DNA of 64,000 bases from Deltaproteobacteria bacterium HGW-Deltaproteobacteria-13. GTDB lineage: Bacteria; Desulfobacterota; Syntrophia; Syntrophales; Smithellaceae. The DNA is taken from assembly GCA_002840555.1 (NCBI GenBank), contig PHBJ01000003.1, positions 64,412-128,411 on the forward strand, in the 5' to 3' direction. Position 1 is the first letter of the stretch. Every line of letters begins with the position of its first letter. A program made the translations under genes and the position numbers. The notes under the pieces were generated by a model. It was not told the DNA's origin. It worked only from the letters and a program-made list of their open reading frames with translations, and searched no databases. Below, piece by piece: positions 55,290 through 63,443 of the stretch.

Positions 55290-55370
55290 GGATAAATAAT
55301 AAGTCGAAGTGCCCTTCTGTGTAAATCCGGCTTCTTCATCACGTCTAATTTTATCCTTTTCTTCCTTAAC

Positions 55371-55399
55371 TCTTAAATCTTAAAACTTAATTACTTAAA
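55371..55399. repeat. Left 29-bp inverted repeat bracketing the AT-rich cassette
   Basis: TCTTAAATCTTAAAACTTAATTACTTAAA. Its reverse complement matches 62927-62955 at 28 of 29 positions. Confidence 0.6.
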
Positions 55400-55471
55400 T
55401 CTTTTTCTTTTCACTTTTCACGGTTATTTACTTAACTATTTAACCCTTAAATCTTAAATCTGTCTTTTTTT

Positions 55472-57225: not shown

Positions 57226-57977
57226 AACCTATTTATGGCAAAAATATTTCCGAAGCATGGGCGCTTGCTTACAATGAGTGTTTTAAAATGCCGGGTGGCC
57301 TTATGGCGCCAGCAATTATTTCTTTTGATATTAATGAGGCTGATGCTTCTTGGCAGCTTGAAACAAAAGATATTCGTTATGCTTTGGATAAACAGCTAAT
57401 TAAAGATGATGAGAGCAGTATTGAAACAGTCGCAGGTACAATCTTTCCTGAGTCGGTTTGGATGCGTTGTAACGGTGACCGCGAAAAGTTATTCATGGAA
57501 TATAATAGAATGTGGCCATATGTAAGTAAATGCAGACAAAATAGACATGGTACTTATTTTCGCCGCCTTAGTTCTTTTGGAACAAATCAACTCAAGGCAG
57601 TAATTGAAACATGGCATTCTGGAACTCATCGCCACAGTGCATTGCAATCAGCTATTTTCGATCCTGCTAAAGATCATTCAAAGGCACGGCAACTTGGGTT
57701 TCCATGTCTGCAACAGGTGGTTTTCCACCCAAAAGGTATCAATGGTTCCGAAGGTATGACAGTTGTTGCATTTTATGCAAATCAATTATTGGTCGAGAAA
57801 GCATATGGCAATTACTTAGGATTGTATCGTTTAGGAAAATTCATGGCAGGTGAAATGGGATTACGCCTGAAAGGTGTAACGTGCATCGCCTCTAATCTTT
57901 CTTTAGGTAAGCATGGTAAAAAAGAATGTCAACACCTTTTAAGTGAAATAAAGAGAGTATTATCTGATGCCAACTAA
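57213..57977 (+). CDS. Thymidylate-synthase-fold protein (candidate pyrimidine C5-modifying enzyme)
   Basis: By-eye alignment to the ThyA core. GTYFRRL matches YGxQWR. THRHSALQSAIFDP matches SRRxIxSAWNP. GFPCLQQVVF matches the PPCHxFxQF catalytic Cys. FYANQLLVEKAYGNYLGL matches YQRSxDxxLGxPFNI. 13-nt overlap with the upstream gene. Confidence 0.6.
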   Translation: MEEIKPIYGKNISEAWALAYNECFKMPGGLMAPAIISFDINEADASWQLETKDIRYALDKQLIKDDESSIETVAGTIFPESVWMRCNGDREKLFMEYNRMWPYVSKCRQNRHGTYFRRLSSFGTNQLKAVIETWHSGTHRHSALQSAIFDPAKDHSKARQLGFPCLQQVVFHPKGINGSEGMTVVAFYANQLLVEKAYGNYLGLYRLGKFMAGEMGLRLKGVTCIASNLSLGKHGKKECQHLLSEIKRVLSDAN

Positions 57978-59130
57978 ACAAAAACTTTCTAGGAACTTAT
58001 CGGGGCGTCTGTTTATTTTTGATGGTATGGATAGTGTTGGTAAAAGCACATTTACAAAAGGTGTTTCAAAAAAAAAGCAAAAAAATAATAATACACCACC
58101 ACGGCAACCTGTAAATAAGACTTGTATAGTAAAAATAATAAATCAATCACATTGGCTACCTACAAAAACAACGGCAGTCTTCGACACATACTGGCGCTTC
58201 GCAGCGGAGAGACAAGAGATATTCTTTAAGCGCATTGCAAGAGCAGAGCCACCATGGACTAAAGATGTTGTTCTACAGAGTTACAAATTTACAAATGCAT
58301 ATCGCGCATCAGATAGAGTGAGTCAGTTCTTAATTCGTCATGTTATTTATGATGGATCCCAAGAAATAGATGAAATATTTTTCAGGATTCTCCTCTTCAA
58401 AACTTTCAACAAAATTGAGACATGGCAACATCTTGTCGATAATTTAGGTCAAATATTCTGGCGTGAGTTTAGTTTTAAAGCTTACGATAAGATTTTAACA
58501 AATGCACAAGCAGCAAAGAAGAGCATATATTCAGCCGCCTATATTATGCCGTCAGGTGGCCGACACGGGGTGCATCGCATCAAACATCGCAATCATCTTC
58601 TGCTAATACAAAAAATGATGGCAGATGCTCTACCTGCCCAAATTAGCGATTCTAAATCTATGCAAGTAGTCTTTAATTTACTCCGCAGTTATCCAATGAT
58701 TGGTGATTTTTTGGCATATCAATATGCTATTGACATTAACTATAGCACATTAACAAATTTCAATGAGATGTCTTTTATCGTACCAGGACCCGGTGCAAAA
58801 GATGGTATCCGTAAATGTTTTTCCGATTTCGGTGGTCTCTCTGAAGTCGATATAATAAAACTTATGGCTGATCGCCAAGAGGATGAGTTTGCTCGCTTGG
58901 GTATCAAATTTAAGGACCTTTGGGGCAGATCACTTCAATTAATTGATTGCCAAAATCTTTTCTGTGAAGTTGATAAATATGCCAGAATTGTACATCCAGA
59001 AATTAAAGGTATTACAGGCCGTAGCAAAATTAAACAGACATTAAAACCCAATAACGAGATGATATCTTATTTTTATCCACCAAAATGGAATATTAACGAA
59101 GCTGTGAAAACCACGTTTGATAATAAATGA
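57967..59130 (+). CDS. DNA-base-hypermodification-family protein (aGPT-pyrophosphorylase / 5-hmdU-kinase helical-domain clan, tentative) with N-terminal P-loop stub
   Basis: RLFIFDGMDSVGKST Walker A, then a Lys/Asn-rich linker. Next come YWRFAAERQEIFFKR, YKFTNAYRASDRVSQFLI, MIGDFLAYQYAIDINY, PGPGAKDG and QNLFCEVDKY, motifs I recall from the 'nucleotide kinase domain-containing / DNA base hypermodification' family. 11-nt overlap with the upstream gene. Confidence 0.5.
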   Translation: MPTKQKLSRNLSGRLFIFDGMDSVGKSTFTKGVSKKKQKNNNTPPRQPVNKTCIVKIINQSHWLPTKTTAVFDTYWRFAAERQEIFFKRIARAEPPWTKDVVLQSYKFTNAYRASDRVSQFLIRHVIYDGSQEIDEIFFRILLFKTFNKIETWQHLVDNLGQIFWREFSFKAYDKILTNAQAAKKSIYSAAYIMPSGGRHGVHRIKHRNHLLLIQKMMADALPAQISDSKSMQVVFNLLRSYPMIGDFLAYQYAIDINYSTLTNFNEMSFIVPGPGAKDGIRKCFSDFGGLSEVDIIKLMADRQEDEFARLGIKFKDLWGRSLQLIDCQNLFCEVDKYARIVHPEIKGITGRSKIKQTLKPNNEMISYFYPPKWNINEAVKTTFDNK

Positions 59131-59150: not shown

Positions 59151-60194
59151 GTGGAATGGCATAGACCACCGTTTAAATTGAAGGAGATCAAAATTGAGGT
59201 TACACACGATTGTATGCTTAGTTGTGTTCATTGTTCGAGCCTTGCAAGTGAAATTACTGGGCGCAGCATGAATTGGTTATCATGTGAAAATATTCTAAAC
59301 GAAGCTAAAGCCATCGGGATTGAGACTATAGCTTTTTCAGGTGGCGAACCACTATTATTGGAATATGTTCCTAAAGCAATAGAACAAGCTTATCAATTTG
59401 GTATTGAAACCCATATTTATACAACAGGTAATGTTCCGCATTTTGAAGAAACCCTACGGCAATTGAATAGGGCTGGATTATCCAAAATAATGTTCAGTCT
59501 TTTTGGAACAAATGCCGAACAGCATGAAAAAGTAACCAAATCCTATGGGAGTTACAATAAAACAATCTCAGCAGCACAATACTGTGTATCTCTCGGTCTA
59601 CAAACGGAATTTCATTTTGTGCCTTTGAATCACAACTTCAGAGCACTTCCAGAAATAGTAAGAAAAGCTCGTAACATGGGTATTGATAAAGTTAGCATCC
59701 TGCGTCTAGTTCCTCAGGGACGTGGTGCAAGCACAAGGCATGAGGAACTCAGCAAAGACCAAAACCTTGAGCTGCGTAAATTAATCAAAGATTTGCGTAG
59801 TGATGGTTATGATATTCGTTTAGGTTCTCCATATAACTTTCTTATGCTTAATGAGAAACCACAATGTTGCGCTGGAATTGATCGTATTACGATAGGACCA
59901 GATTTACGAATATTTCCTTGTGATGCGTTCAAACATATTTCTCCAAGTGATATAGGAGCCTCTGCTGACTATTCTGATTTGGGGAATCATTCTCTTGCTG
60001 AATGCTGGGAAAAGTCACCTTATTTAAATATAGTAAGAAATTACTTGATGTCAGATTTTGCTTCTGAATGTTCTGCCTGCAATAATCTAACAAATTGTCG
60101 ATCAGGTTGTATGGCGCAAAAATTTTATGCTTTCAAAGAGCTTAAAAAAACCACTGATCCAATGTGCCTTCGTATAGATACGCAATGTAACTAA
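59151..60194 (+). CDS. Radical SAM enzyme with SPASM/twitch-type C-terminal Cys-rich domain
   Basis: CMLSCVHC (CxxxCxxC), FSGGEPLL. C-terminal CCAG...FPCD...CSACNNLTNCRSGCMAQ. GTG start after AAGGGAG. Confidence 0.85.
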   Translation: MEWHRPPFKLKEIKIEVTHDCMLSCVHCSSLASEITGRSMNWLSCENILNEAKAIGIETIAFSGGEPLLLEYVPKAIEQAYQFGIETHIYTTGNVPHFEETLRQLNRAGLSKIMFSLFGTNAEQHEKVTKSYGSYNKTISAAQYCVSLGLQTEFHFVPLNHNFRALPEIVRKARNMGIDKVSILRLVPQGRGASTRHEELSKDQNLELRKLIKDLRSDGYDIRLGSPYNFLMLNEKPQCCAGIDRITIGPDLRIFPCDAFKHISPSDIGASADYSDLGNHSLAECWEKSPYLNIVRNYLMSDFASECSACNNLTNCRSGCMAQKFYAFKELKKTTDPMCLRIDTQCN

Positions 60195-60401
60195 GAGATG
60201 AAGTCGTAACTCTTCTTACGTTGTAACTTTTATGGATTCATAAAATATTAAGAGTAGTTCCGGCTGTGAACGCATGTATTGCAGCTTTGTGAGTAGAGTT
60301 TTGGGTAATTAGGGATATATGTACCTATTTATGCCCATTTATACAGAAGCCATCTGCCAGAATGACAAGTGTGAAGATGGAGAAATCATAATATCCTTTT
60401 T

Positions 60402-61631
60402 CTAATCAGCGGAGAACACCTTCGGGTATCGCGTGGCCAATTTTGCCGCAAATTCTCTGATGTAAGGCCATTCAGAATTTTGTAGTTCTTCTAAATAGTC
60501 GGGATAGACTATTGACATTTCTAGAGGTATTTTAGCGACTAATTCTTCTTGTATACATTCAATTGCTAGCGCCATTCGATCACAATCTTTTACTAAAGAA
60601 GCAACACTATTTTTTTCATCGTCGGAAATGTCTTTAAGAAGATGATTCTCATCTATATACTTGGAAAGTTCAGTTGTACTAGTAAGTGCCTTTATTGGTA
60701 GCGCTGCCATTTTGTTTTCTATGTCGTTCCAAAGATTTTTTTCCTCAGGGTATTCTCTTTTAATGATATCTTTAACAGGTGTAATAATATCTCCGGTTAA
60801 TGCCTCAGGGACATCATGGAATAGAGCTCTTTGAAGCGCTCCAATCTTAAAATCAATTGTGAGTTTCTGACTATCTTCATGCATCCATGTAAATAATAAT
60901 GCTAATAAAGTTACAACATATGTATGGGAGAGGACATTGGTTTCTATAGAACGATTAATTCTATTCCATCGTCGAAGGTATTTTAAATTCCTTATTACTT
61001 TAAAATATCCGGGAAGTCTGTCAACCTCTATATCACCTGTCTTGACAGGTTTATTATAGCGATTAAAAGAAATATTAAGCTTATTTACCCAAGAACTATT
61101 TTTACAAAAACCTTTAACGTCTTTTTCTATTTCCTTAATATACCCCGAGTAATATTCGTTATATACAGTTGAGTTTGTCTTACATTCTTGTAAAGCAGTC
61201 TGACGTTGGACATATTTGCACAACTCTTTGATTCTAATTTCATTACTTTCGACAAGATATCTCTTGACTTGTGGTCGTATCATTCTCGGAAATAAGCGTA
61301 GTGTATAAGTCAATGCTCTTTCTTCGACCTTCTTTTCCCATTTTTTTGAATTGCTATTTTTAAGTGATGTGTCTAAGGCACGTTTAAATCGATAGGATAC
61401 ATCCGATAGGAAACGTTTTGTCAATGGTTTTAGTATTTCATAAGCAAGATAATCAAATGCTATCTCTTTTAATTCTTGTTTTTCTTTAATTGTATCGCAG
61501 AGCAAGGCAAAACCGATATGTGCAGAGTATGCAACATTCTCCGCTTCTACCCATGTTTCTACACGTGGCAGAAAATTCCATCTTTGTATCATGAATAAAG
61601 ATGTGATTGCATCAACAAGAGTATCTTTCAT
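60402..61631 (-). CDS. Tandem YfbR-like HD-domain phosphohydrolase (degenerate N-terminal copy, intact C-terminal copy)
   Basis: C-terminal half: RRWNR...ETNVLSHTYVV...ALFHDVPEALTGDIITPVK...DCDRMA, matching the YfbR 5'-deoxynucleotidase pattern. N-terminal half repeats QRWNFLPRVE...ENVAYSAHIG but lacks the HD dyad. Start set at 61631 after GGAGGA (alternative 61643). Confidence 0.7.
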   Translation of the reverse strand: MKDTLVDAITSLFMIQRWNFLPRVETWVEAENVAYSAHIGFALLCDTIKEKQELKEIAFDYLAYEILKPLTKRFLSDVSYRFKRALDTSLKNSNSKKWEKKVEERALTYTLRLFPRMIRPQVKRYLVESNEIRIKELCKYVQRQTALQECKTNSTVYNEYYSGYIKEIEKDVKGFCKNSSWVNKLNISFNRYNKPVKTGDIEVDRLPGYFKVIRNLKYLRRWNRINRSIETNVLSHTYVVTLLALLFTWMHEDSQKLTIDFKIGALQRALFHDVPEALTGDIITPVKDIIKREYPEEKNLWNDIENKMAALPIKALTSTTELSKYIDENHLLKDISDDEKNSVASLVKDCDRMALAIECIQEELVAKIPLEMSIVYPDYLEELQNSEWPYIREFAAKLATRYPKVFSAD

Positions 61632-61692
61632 ATTCTCCTCCATGAAGAAAATAAATCATCAATCAGTGTGGATCGGTATCATTAAAAAGATA

Positions 61693-62652
61693 TTATGTTC
61701 CTAACATGCGGAACAATGGAGAATCATATCTTAAATTGTAGTAAGATTGAGGAGGTCTGAAAGAAGGAATATAGCTATTTCTAATAGAATCTAAAGACCA
61801 TTTCTTTGATAATATTTTAACATTATCAAGTTCAATGGCATAACCATTATTGATCCCGTTAAAATAAGTAAAAAAGTCTTGTTCAGATACTCCCCCGATA
61901 GCACAGAATCGTTTCCATAAATCATTTACATCGGAATGATGTACTTTAGACAATATTGATGAAAAGGTAATGCATTTAACAGGAGAAGAGATATAGAAGT
62001 ATGCAATGGCCCCCTCCATATTCCTTGAAAAACGACGTCGGAATTCAACACGTTTCCCCCCGCTGATGATTAAGTCTGCAAATTGCGGTTTAAGAGAAAA
62101 CAATAGGGCAGAATTCTGCCTGTTATTAGTATCATTTTCGGCGTGTGTCCATGCAAGTGAACGACTAGTTAAATGATAGGGAACCGGGCAAGAATATATA
62201 TGTTCGTCCACACCATGCGAATATCGGTTACGAACATTGGCGATATTATGAAAGCCTAATGATTCAACAAATTTTATGATACTTGGTTCGGCTGCTTCAC
62301 TAATAGTAACCCTAATATCTTTAGTAGATTTATCTATTGTATGGCGTAGACCTTCTGATAATAGCGCTTTTCCTAATCCAATTTTTTTCACATCATCTTT
62401 TAGCCGAAGAGTACATATCTTAGGGTTCGTAGCCCTTTTACCAATAAAAAGGCCTTTAATAATATCTGCGACTTTCAAAACTAAGATCACTCTGTTACCT
62501 TCGAGAACACCCGGCAAGACTTTTTTCTTCCACCAATTATCAATTGCCGGGTATAGATGATCACTCTCTATGAGAAATTCCAGGATAGAAGGATAATCAT
62601 TAAAAACAGCAGGGCTGATAGAAATATCTTTTATAGTCACTTGCTCTTGCAT
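61693..62652 (-). CDS. GNAT acetyltransferase fused to an ASCH (PUA-like) domain
   Basis: N-terminal GNAT motif A region (VKKIGLGKALLSEG...ESLGF). C-terminal ASCH-like LLFSLKPQFADLIISGGKRVEFRRRF...GYAIEL. Confidence 0.6.
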   Translation of the reverse strand: MQEQVTIKDISISPAVFNDYPSILEFLIESDHLYPAIDNWWKKKVLPGVLEGNRVILVLKVADIIKGLFIGKRATNPKICTLRLKDDVKKIGLGKALLSEGLRHTIDKSTKDIRVTISEAAEPSIIKFVESLGFHNIANVRNRYSHGVDEHIYSCPVPYHLTSRSLAWTHAENDTNNRQNSALLFSLKPQFADLIISGGKRVEFRRRFSRNMEGAIAYFYISSPVKCITFSSILSKVHHSDVNDLWKRFCAIGGVSEQDFFTYFNGINNGYAIELDNVKILSKKWSLDSIRNSYIPSFRPPQSYYNLRYDSPLFRMLGT

Positions 62653-62658
62653 GAATTA

Positions 62659-62687
62659 AAAATACGGCAGGTTATCTTGTCTGTCAA
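62659..62687 (-). promoter_or_regulatory. Candidate sigma70 promoter giving a leaderless mRNA for the GNAT-ASCH gene
   Basis: Minus strand: TTGACA (62687-62682), 17 nt, TATTTT (62664-62659), 6 nt, ATG (62652). No Shine-Dalgarno sequence is present. Confidence 0.35.
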
Positions 62688-62926
62688 GAGAAATTTGCCA
62701 CATCATATAGTGTTGTGGAATAAAGGAACAACTGATTCGTGGATGGTCATAATATGGAATATTCTCTTGAAAATACCGTTTGTTAAGATTAGTTTTCAAA
62801 GACCATTTATTCCCTCGGTTGCACATTGGGCTCATAACCCAAAAGTTTGTTTATTCGGTGTTGCGGTGTGATTGTTTCCGCGTCTATTAGGCGCCCGATA
62901 TGTTTTGCGTAAACTCATAATAAAGT

Positions 62927-62955
62927 TTTAAGTAATTAAGTATTAAGATTTAAGA
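62927..62955. repeat. Right 29-bp inverted repeat bracketing the AT-rich cassette
   Basis: TTTAAGTAATTAAGTATTAAGATTTAAGA: reverse complement of 55371-55399 with one mismatch. Confidence 0.6.
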
Positions 62956-62976
62956 ATCAAAGAATAAATGAACTGG

Positions 62977-63080: not shown

Positions 63081-63443
63081 TCAGTACAAAGCCGGACACA
63101 TCAAACACCATATATCCAGTGCCCAGTCATAAAGGCCGCTGGTGTACAGGAACGCCTTGCCTCTCTGAAAGAGGGCTGGTGATATCCTCTTCATGATCCA
63201 GCAGAACTTGGCGTCGGGCTGAGGGATGACATAGAGCCTGTTCTTCCGGATTGCCTTGAGGGTACTGCGTGAGACGTTCTCAATCGTGCCGAATGAGAAC
63301 TTGTCGAAGAAGGCATTCGTCATCGTGATCTGCCGTTCATCGGTGCACCGCGCCTGGTCCATGAGATTGGTCTTGAAAAAAGTGGGGCACACCACCATGA
63401 GCCTTACAAAGAAGAGGTTGTCGTTTTTCTCCGTTTGACCAAG
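63081..63443 (-). pseudogene. 3' fragment of a short-chain dehydrogenase/reductase (SDR) gene
   Basis: ...VVCPTFFKTNLMDQ...RLYVIPQPDAKFCWIMKRISP matches only the C-terminal third of an SDR. An in-frame stop lies at 63444-63446 and there is no room for a Rossmann domain before the next gene (ends 63467). Confidence 0.55.

Follow-up and report, generated by a model that had tools for sequence, protein, structure and literature searches.

Two adjacent minus-strand genes in the window (the whole 64,000-nucleotide stretch of contig PHBJ01000003.1 that was analysed) encode a GNAT-ASCH fusion protein and a tandem HD-domain protein, here called HD2 (Table 1). Comparison with related sequences suggests that the two make up a self-contained operon that spreads horizontally and for which we propose a role at the dNTP pool, and we give this reading as a whole about an even chance of being right. 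Within it, the pair most likely acts on the deoxynucleotide pool independently of the neighbouring operon, possibly as a phage-defence module.

Distribution and mobility of the cassette

The 2.45-kb cassette is 95.6% identical in DNA sequence to its counterpart in a Smithella MAG (L001); the similarity is confined to this interval, and both flanks differ (blastn). The cassette lies inside a low-GC island, with a GC content of 0.34–0.39 inside and 0.43–0.50 outside. The HD gene is carried by two of 61 related genomes and, within one genus, by two of 36, one of these copies being a pseudogene; a full-length GNAT-ASCH fusion is present in one of 401 genomes of the phylum. The promoter-like site in front of GNAT-ASCH matches the consensus at 10 of 12 positions in a consensus scan, which is a pattern match only, and the DNA around it is 91–95% conserved with relatives.

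Purifying selection acts on both genes and on each HD half, with dN/dS values of 0.19–0.34 (0.24–0.26 for the whole HD2 gene, 0.29–0.34 for its N half and 0.24–0.32 for GNAT-ASCH). Between flanks of 90–99% identity, the HD2 ORF stands out as a divergent mosaic stretch of 63–85% identity. HD2 is broken in L002 and apparently in L001/G020, and GNAT-ASCH is intact in each. The frameshift in the L001/G020 copy may be an assembly error.

The broken copies bear on the idea that the cassette is a classical GNAT toxin–antitoxin pair, in which GNAT-ASCH would block translation via aminoacyl-tRNA, guided by its ASCH domain, and the HD protein would be the antidote. GNAT toxins are well known, (PIN)-GNAT-EVE/ASCH operons have been predicted to be toxin–antitoxin-like (PMC7641849), and the cassette is a compact, mobile two-gene unit that adjoins HicB in relatives. 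However, with the HD protein as antitoxin, disruption of HD2 beside an intact GNAT-ASCH would be lethal, and the partner is a 370–410-aa enzyme with a complete active site, of either HD or dCTP deaminase-like (DCD) type, rather than a small DNA-binding protein; the cassette has no gene for an RHH or HTH antitoxin. Given the disrupted HD genes and the large enzyme partner, the HD protein was rejected as an antitoxin, and we consider a toxin–antitoxin function of the pair very improbable. A broken HD2 beside an intact GNAT-ASCH is rather what is expected of a costly effector.

Table 1. Features of the two-gene cassette and its surroundings (positions in the window)
Feature	Position	Strand	Size or residues	Basis or remark
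Two-gene cassette	60335..62787		2.45 kb	blastn
Tandem HD gene, HD2	60402..61643	-	413 aa	ORF; Pfam YfbR-like and HD_3
HD2, alternative start (ATG)	61631	-	409 aa	possibly the real start, from family alignments
HD2, N-terminal pseudo-HD domain	61023..61643	-	residues 1-207	hhalign, Foldseek, invariant columns
HD2, C-terminal YfbR-like HD domain	60405..61022	-	residues 208-413	alignment to 2paq
GNAT-ASCH fusion gene	61693..62652	-	319 aa	ORF; upstream of HD2
GNAT acetyltransferase domain	62173..62595	-	about residues 20-160	Pfam, PHROG, PADLOC
ASCH domain, GKER octapeptide type	61723..62112	-	about residues 181-310	PDB, PADLOC
Promoter-like site, TTGACA-17-TATTTT	62659..62687	-		ends 6 nt upstream of the start codon of GNAT-ASCH
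Radical SAM gene, 3′ end, convergent	60086..60194	+		near-identical remnant beside the HD gene in L081-L083
Imperfect inverted repeat, left arm	55358..55404		47 nt	repeat search
Imperfect inverted repeat, right arm	62922..62968		47 nt	repeat search

HD2 is an internally duplicated YfbR-type protein

Family profiles and structural models confirm that a YfbR-type HD domain is duplicated within the 413-aa HD2, with one copy predicted to be live and the other dead. The preliminary description had already read the protein as duplicated and half-inactivated, and the profiles, the N-half model and the residue alignment agree with it; all the motifs that it quoted for a protein of 409–413 aa are found in the translations. 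The two halves align with each other when their family profiles are compared (hhalign, probability 96%, E 4.5e-9 over 174 aligned columns). The duplication came to light only through profiles and structure, a direct BLASTP comparison of the two halves having given no match. We found 111 full-length relatives of HD2.

The C half (residues 213–404) matches the Pfam YfbR-like family (PF12917) with E 4.6e-27 and 95.3 bits (cutoff 25.9) and the YfbR structure 2paq with E 2.9e-6. In the alignment to 2paq, R225, W226, H240 and H276 correspond to YfbR R18, W19, H33 and H68, and D277, E280, D285 and D355 to D69, E72, D77 and D137. The HD2 family shows no variation at H240, E280 and D285 and at least 90% conservation at H276 and D277. 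With residue roles as reviewed for YfbR (metal ligands, catalytic Glu and the deoxyribose-selecting R-W and D; PMC8177086), the C half is, by alignment, a domain that carries every catalytic and deoxyribose-selecting residue of that enzyme. It shares its fold and all key residues with the single-domain proteins YfbR, OxsA, DatZ and HDDC2 (PF12917/PF13023). HD2 is not a YfbR orthologue, since it scores 49.8 bits against the NCBIfam 5′-deoxynucleotidase equivalog NF003009, under the cutoff of 122.

The AlphaFold2 model of the whole chain has a pLDDT of 89.6 and a pTM of 0.92. Foldseek matches of this model were weak (E-values of 0.002 and above), since each covers half of the query, and the N half was therefore modelled separately (pLDDT 85, pTM 0.80). 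Its top match in the PDB is YfbR (2pau_B; TM 0.80 on target, probability 1.00), on which it superimposes with an rmsd of 3.0 Å over 195 columns, followed by OxsA, lin2634 and DatZ. The Pfam YfbR-like profile also recognizes residues 1–211 alone over profile positions 6–165 of 182, at a score below cutoff (E 0.0014, 18.8 bits).

The all-helical HD-type fold of the N half lacks the H..HD..D metal ligands: Y39 (or possibly H42), K72, P73 and Q146 replace H, H, D and D, and the invariant K76 occupies the position of the catalytic Glu. The retention of ligands by the second copy only, noticed from this one sequence in the preliminary description, is consistent across 37 family members. The N half retains the sugar-binding R-W and D, and R21, W22, K76, D81 and E153 are invariant across the family. 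By model and alignment, then, the N half is a YfbR fold in which the metal site has been destroyed but which is still strongly conserved. YfbR itself, whose fold the N half shares, forms a homodimer from subunits of about 200 aa, whereas HD2 has two copies in a single chain, one of them metal-less yet conserved. Such a conserved dead HD domain would offer a clean case in which to study the conversion of a homodimeric enzyme into a fused catalytic-plus-regulatory pseudo-dimer.

A GNAT domain fused to a GKER-type ASCH domain

The 319-aa product of the upstream gene is, on domain matches, a true GNAT-ASCH fusion, as was first noticed from its translation alone. Pfam Acetyltransf_10 matches residues 51–141 marginally (24.4 bits, cutoff 23.6), and the GNAT part also matches the PHROG acetyltransferase phrog_13728 (E 4e-11) and the GNAT region of PADLOC PDC-M11A (E 2.6e-7). 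The predicted acetyl-CoA loop (R/Q-x-x-G-x-G/A) reads K-K-I-G-L-G-K-A here, and its G94 is at least 90% conserved. Residues 183–310 match the Zymomonas ASCH structure 5guq (ZmASCH) over 128 residues (E 3.7e-15), and the ASCH region matches PADLOC PDC-M11B (E 6.3e-29). The protein carries the ASCH octapeptide G-x-K-x-x-E-x-R as G198, K200, E203 and R205, and the last three are invariant among 36 fusion homologues. Pfam ASCH (PF04266) stays below its cutoff (12.7 bits against 21.2), and NCBIfam gave no usable match for the C-terminal part of the fusion.

The fold family and the GKER octapeptide are shared with ZmASCH, YqfB, TthASCH and EOLA1, for which a Lys/Glu dyad is reported to be catalytic; ZmASCH is a reported ssRNA nuclease, inactive on free nucleoside. 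[quoted passage not shown]

The two PADLOC matches belong to the candidate system PDC-M11, which we infer from domain content and profile length to be the (PIN)-GNAT-EVE plus ASCH operon type. A GNAT with a ZmASCH-type (GKER) ASCH is common to our cassette and those operons (Iyer 2013; Bell, Wolf and Koonin 2020, PMC7641849), which have been predicted to act in toxin–antitoxin systems or defence. PDC-M11 has separate GNAT-EVE (with or without PIN) and ASCH proteins, whereas GNAT and ASCH are fused here, no EVE or PIN domain was detected with Pfam and PADLOC, and an AAA_17 ATPase is absent. The two also differ in that the partner here is a predicted deoxynucleotide-degrading enzyme (HD or DCD), and PMC7641849 mentions none for those operons.

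Partner genes of GNAT-ASCH and of HD2

A word-based homologue search with the fusion returned almost only close relatives, and the wider family was collected by an exhaustive HMMER search, which gave dozens of full-length representatives at 50% clustering. In 47 metagenome loci with a GNAT-ASCH relative, found in a scan with a 15-sequence alignment, a DCD gene of PF06559 type is adjacent in 34, usually 25–60 nt downstream on the same strand. A tandem HD gene is present in four; seven loci stop at the contig edge, and the other two have neither. Thus most members have a DCD partner, and it is in the Smithella-type clade of the present cassette that the tandem HD protein takes its place. The DCD-partner pattern is repeated in L115–L117, and the DCD partner matches the PDB structure 2r9q with E 4.7e-44. 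In the Bacteroidota locus L008, HD2, CYTH, DCD and GNAT-ASCH stand in one operon.

The alternation of DCD and tandem HD partners points to a conserved GNAT-ASCH protein with an exchangeable second gene for a deoxynucleotide-degrading enzyme, probably conflict-related. An independent nucleotide-depletion effector, which the preliminary description had offered as its alternative, fits the pair best; across the wider family the partner position is taken by a dCTP deaminase-like enzyme. The papers searched contain no description of a GNAT-ASCH plus dCTP deaminase-like or HD gene pair; if the reading is right, it would define a recurrent, undescribed pair of this composition.

The neighbours of HD2 elsewhere are mixed. 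The Nitrospirota locus L086 has the order CYTH-HD2-dGTPase, its dGTPase matching the PADLOC dGTPase model with E 1.6e-73; other HD2 neighbours are SLFN_AlbA_2, NOV_C and PIN genes, and in relatives the cassette adjoins HicB. Many HD2 relatives adjoin housekeeping genes (pyruvate kinase, DJ-1, ABC transporters, HMP kinase), and many GNAT-ASCH-DCD operons have a MerR-type regulator and ordinary neighbours such as YbeY, a PLP enzyme and RmuC. Against PADLOC, the HD2 protein had no match better than E 0.029, and the DCD partners of relatives had none, dCTP-deaminase models included. In the viral contigs scanned there were single-domain HD matches and no tandem HD protein.

These housekeeping neighbours make a metabolic or house-cleaning role possible, in which the HD protein would act as a deoxynucleotidase for house-cleaning or salvage within housekeeping or stress-responsive nucleotide metabolism, with no phage conflict, and GNAT-ASCH a metabolic or regulatory partner, for example one that recycles N4-acetylcytidine-type compounds. 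YfbR, HDDC2 and YGK1 are ordinary nucleotidases (PMC8177086), some ASCH proteins, GKER-type members among them, are N4-acetylcytidine amidohydrolases or tRNA ac4C erasers, and the genomic settings of the MerR-GNAT-ASCH-DCD operons and of several HD2 relatives, like the viral-contig result, agree with such a role. It sits poorly with very patchy carriage within one genus, where one of the two copies is a pseudogene, with a cassette that keeps 95.6% identity between different flanks, and with an HD ORF that is allelically hypervariable between conserved ones. The cassette's place in a low-GC island and beside a defence-type operon, the HicB gene of relatives and the defence candidate PDC-M11 among the closest matches also speak against it, and we regard it as unlikely.

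Proposed mode of action

In the deoxynucleotide-pool reading that we prefer, the C half of HD2 would hydrolyse dNMPs or dNTPs. The CYTH and dGTPase genes that neighbour HD2 in other phyla favour dNTPs as the substrate, with release of tripolyphosphate. The N half would bind nucleotides without metal, as an allosteric site, or would act as a pseudo-dimer partner built into the chain. GNAT-ASCH would control the hydrolase or cooperate with it: its GNAT domain may acetylate the enzyme or a cytosine-type nucleotide, and its ASCH domain may read or remove an N-acyl mark, or bind nucleic acid. The outcome would be a conflict-related lowering of the dNTP pool, as phage defence or abortive infection, with stress-induced control of the pool as the fallback role. 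For a part in conflict speak the PDC-M11 matches, the dGTPase, SLFN_AlbA_2, NOV_C and PIN genes near HD2 in other loci, the defence-type operon next door, the mosaic HD2 ORF and the broken HD2 copies.

The proposed logic, removal of dNTPs, is that of the nucleotide-depletion defence enzymes dGTPase, dCTP deaminase and SAMHD1, with differences in the enzymes themselves. The HD2 domain is YfbR-type and not of the Dgt/SAMHD1 type. Validated defence deaminases have a different, zinc-dependent cytidine-deaminase fold; the DCD partners found here, which no PADLOC model recognizes, are of the PF06559/2r9q type. Should the reading hold, the short list of nucleotide-pool effectors would gain a YfbR-type enzyme that includes its own pseudo-enzyme half.

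A more specific version, which we think quite doubtful, is that GNAT-ASCH, as both acetyl writer and reader/eraser, gates a DCD or tandem-HD effector that is exchangeable, with the dead HD half as an allosteric sensor. Gating could then work by N-acetylation, either of the enzyme itself or of cytosine nucleotides at their exocyclic amine. If true, this would make the cassette one of a new and widespread class of acetylation-controlled dNTP-depletion immune modules.

Relation to the adjacent six-gene operon

The neighbouring plus-strand operon of six genes is XRE/ImmA-controlled and includes TS-like, 5-hmdU-kinase-like (HMUDK_hel) and radical SAM genes; operons of its type have a validated defence relative (PMC13092281). 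The preliminary description had favoured the pair as the half of this operon that excludes the canonical base and tailors or reads the modified one. As an accessory arm, the HD protein would clear a canonical or toxic modified nucleotide, for self-resistance or to clean the pool, in the manner of OxsA, DatZ and ThmC, and GNAT-ASCH would tailor or read the base. Nucleotide hydrolases of nucleoside-analogue and modified-base pathways, such as ThmC (PMC12691670) and DatZ (PMC8065100), are precedents for this. The two modules are also adjacent and convergent within one low-GC island, and the 47-nt inverted repeat, with arms 87% complementary, brackets the whole island, operon and pair together; the repeat may be a chance match, given its AT-rich, low-complexity sequence.

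Co-occurrence does not support an obligate link. The pair is found without the operon in L002, L008, L081–L085 and L001/G020, and the operon is found without the pair on five other contigs (L092–L096). Occurrence apart from the operon is the first part of what the preliminary description had named as evidence against its main reading. No locus that we examined outside the source genome has both modules, and the examined GNAT-ASCH relatives, with their dCTP deaminase-like partners, are never paired with this operon. G020, one of the pair carriers among the 61 related genomes, has no 5-hmdU-kinase homologue anywhere in its genome, and the kinase domain of the 5-hmdU-kinase-like neighbour is largely deleted here. 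The pair persists under purifying selection without the operon. Obligate membership of the operon was rejected, each module having been found alone, and we consider it unlikely that the pair is an accessory arm.

Physical linkage of the two modules exists only in this lineage, and the annotation logic of the island is corrected to two separable modules in place of one pathway. Two observations speak for some association. In L081 a 3′ radical SAM remnant of roughly 110 nt adjoins the HD gene. L081–L083 all keep such a near-identical remnant next to their HD gene and lack the remaining parts of the operon; its retention indicates that the adjacency of the modules predates the split of these lineages. 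In L094–L096 the six-gene operon is followed by a Lactamase_B gene and a gene for a different HD-superfamily protein.

Organization of the low-GC island

The GNAT-ASCH fusion gene and the tandem HD gene occupy the right-hand edge of a low-GC island at ~54-62.9 kb (GC 0.34-0.39 vs. 0.43-0.50 around it). The two ORFs are separated by 49 nt and face a convergent operon of six plus-strand genes. No recombinase gene lies between the arms of the inverted repeat that brackets both. The dehydrogenase-like fragment just beyond the right arm is consistent with insertion of the island into, or beside, a disrupted gene.

Features of the island and its right border (window positions)
Feature	Position	Strand	Description
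GNAT-ASCH fusion	61693-62652	-	ORF, 319 aa
Tandem HD protein	60402-61643	-	ORF, 413 aa, or 409 aa from second ATG
Six-gene operon		+	96-aa protein; XRE regulator; ImmA/M78 peptidase; 254-aa thymidylate-synthase-like protein; P-loop stub fused to HMUDK_hel; radical SAM/SPASM enzyme
5-hmdU-kinase-like protein	57967-59130	+	387 aa, thymidylate-kinase domain reduced to P-loop stub
Inverted repeat	55358-55404 and 62922-62968		47 nt, imperfect, 87%-complementary, AT-rich; brackets 7.6-kb low-GC island (operon and pair)
Dehydrogenase-like ORF	63081-63398	-	105 aa, resembles C-terminal fragment of short-chain dehydrogenase

The GNAT-ASCH protein

The preliminary description saw a GNAT fold joined to an ASCH domain in the upstream gene, and the database matches bear this out. 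The N-terminal part scores just above the Pfam GNAT threshold and also matches a phage acetyltransferase family, and residues 183-310 match a solved Zymomonas ASCH protein (E 3.7e-15) and carry the ASCH octapeptide G-x-K-x-x-E-x-R, whose K, E and R are invariant in 36 homologues. The PADLOC model matched by the ASCH part is PDC-M11B (E 6.3e-29); for the GNAT part it is PDC-M11A (E 2.6e-7). This candidate defence system, PDC-M11, probably corresponds to the '(PIN)-GNAT-EVE plus ASCH' operon type, for which a toxin-antitoxin or defence-like role has been predicted (PMC7641849). According to a 2026 preprint, GKER-type ASCH proteins can strip N4-acetyl groups from tRNA cytidine via the Lys and Glu of the motif. 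The fusion is a real family (about half of the best 150 representatives in an exhaustive HMMER search are full-length) and a rare one: of 401 genomes from the phylum one has it, and most ASCH proteins there stand alone.

The tandem HD protein

All motifs previously quoted for this protein are found in its translation. The C half is a clear YfbR-like HD domain (residues 213-404; 95 bits with Pfam; PDB 2paq, E 2.9e-6), in which R225, W226, H240, H276, D277, E280, D285 and D355 align with YfbR R18, W19, H33, H68, D69, E72, D77 and D137, residues that act in metal binding, catalysis and deoxyribose selection (reviewed in PMC8177086). The N half shows no BLASTP similarity to the C half and matches the YfbR-like Pfam profile below threshold (E 0.0014) over nearly its full length. 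Profile-profile comparison aligns the two halves with 96% probability (E 4.5e-9, 174 columns), placing K72-P73 on the HD dyad, K76 on the catalytic Glu, D81 on D285 (YfbR D77) and Q146 on the last Asp; the suggested internal duplication with one half devoid of metal ligands is thus upheld. AlphaFold2 models the full-length protein confidently (pLDDT 89.6, pTM 0.92), and when the N half is modelled alone (pLDDT 85) a search of PDB structures returns YfbR first (TM 0.80, rmsd 3.0 A), followed by OxsA, lin2634 and DatZ. The N half is thereby shown to be the same domain as the C half.

The protein has 111 or more full-length relatives. In a 37-sequence alignment conservation of the N half is strong (R21, W22, N23, P26, W31, E33, E35, N36, K76, D81 and E153 are invariant), and its dN/dS is 0.29-0.34 vs. 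0.19-0.20 for the C half; this metal-less half is not decaying. It keeps the deoxyribose-contacting residues, lysines replace the metal and acid positions, and it may bind a nucleotide without metal or act as the scaffold of a pseudo-dimer.

Relation to the six-gene operon

The pair had been proposed as one half of the adjoining operon, and co-occurrence speaks against this. Six loci (L081-L085, L002) have the pair with the operon's place taken by an ABC-F gene, rsfS and the like, or a transposase. Homology to the contig of a Smithella MAG (L001; 95.6%) is confined to 60335-62787, exactly the two genes with short flanks, and the L001 flanks differ from those in the window, with HicB first and a conserved set of housekeeping genes beyond it. 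Of 61 related genomes, G000 and G020 have the HD gene and only G000 has a 5-hmdU-kinase homologue. Five other contigs (L092-L096) have the six operon genes together, never followed by the pair. In L081-L083, ~110 nt of the radical SAM gene 3′ end, stop codon included, lies beside the HD gene (L081:11227-11540) and the rest of the operon is absent; therefore the modules travelled together in the window lineage before the operon was deleted. The inverted repeat around both is a residual physical linkage. We thus regard pair and operon as two separable modules in one island rather than one pathway, with much higher confidence than the overall reading of the pair given below, and a functional link between them is improbable.

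In L092 and L093 the operon is followed by an 8xMP gene, and in L094-L096 by a same-strand Lactamase_B-fold gene and an unrelated 424-aa HD/HDOD-type gene. Three homologues of the 5-hmdU-kinase-like protein (P0131-P0133; 84-86% identical, 568-573 aa) have a complete thymidylate-kinase domain. L092 and L093 have the short form as well (89% identity); the truncation is therefore not confined to the window genome.

Apparent exchange of the second gene

Distant GNAT-ASCH fusions (30-44% identity) are nearly always followed, on the same strand and 25-60 nt downstream, by a PF06559-type '2′-deoxycytidine 5′-triphosphate deaminase' (DCD) gene, whose product matches PDB 2r9q; a MerR-type regulator often precedes the two. 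The DCD gene adjoins 34 of 47 metagenome GNAT-ASCH loci, the tandem HD gene takes its position in four, all close relatives of the window, seven are cut by a contig end and two have neither partner. Three further contigs (L115-L117) agree with the DCD pattern. The order MerR-type regulator, GNAT-ASCH, DCD recurs in the metagenome loci (L115-L161, e.g., L130:5436-8085 and L135:5453-8113). One Bacteroidota operon (L008) holds HD2-CYTH-DCD-GNAT-ASCH together, so the two partner types are also connected by evidence from outside the Smithella clade. No description of GNAT-ASCH paired with either partner was found in the literature searched.

Exchange is also suggested at close range. Between the window and L081, L084, L118 and L119 the promoter region and GNAT-ASCH gene are 91-99% identical and the HD ORF only 63-85%; the downstream flank is ~90% identical in L081 only, the other three lacking it or having a dissimilar one. 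The HD gene has a dS of 0.82 and GNAT-ASCH one of 0.15. This contrast suggests that the HD gene is an allelic block replaced by recombination, which parallels the deeper HD/DCD swap.

The HD gene is split in L002 by a ~900 bp insertion with no recognisable domain (L002:8806-10927) and frameshifted in L001/G020 (possibly an assembly error), and GNAT-ASCH is intact in both; this argues against the HD protein as an antitoxin, a role we reject, and fits a costly effector. An IS4/IS5-type DDE transposase gene lies just downstream of the split gene (L002:11268-12734).

Possible role of the pair

We consider it about an even chance that the pair is a mobile module in which a conserved GNAT-ASCH partner accompanies a deoxynucleotide-degrading enzyme that can be exchanged, in the window a YfbR-type hydrolase joined in one chain to a conserved duplicate lacking the metal ligands, with conflict or defence through lowering of the dNTP pool as its most likely biology; we are much surer of the architecture. 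Of the earlier proposals, that of an independent nucleotide-depletion effector agrees best with this. The main rival is a stress or house-cleaning role, and the tandem HD gene does also adjoin plainly housekeeping genes. Its other neighbours include SLFN_AlbA_2, NOV_C and PIN genes, a dGTPase gene (L086; PADLOC dGTPase model, E 1.6e-73) and, in three loci (L003, L008, L086), CYTH genes. CYTH enzymes act on triphosphates, so this neighbourhood hints that the HD enzyme may release tripolyphosphate from dNTPs. In the Nitrospirota locus (L086:7332-12003) the genes for CYTH, tandem HD, dGTPase and a 448-aa protein without assigned function overlap.
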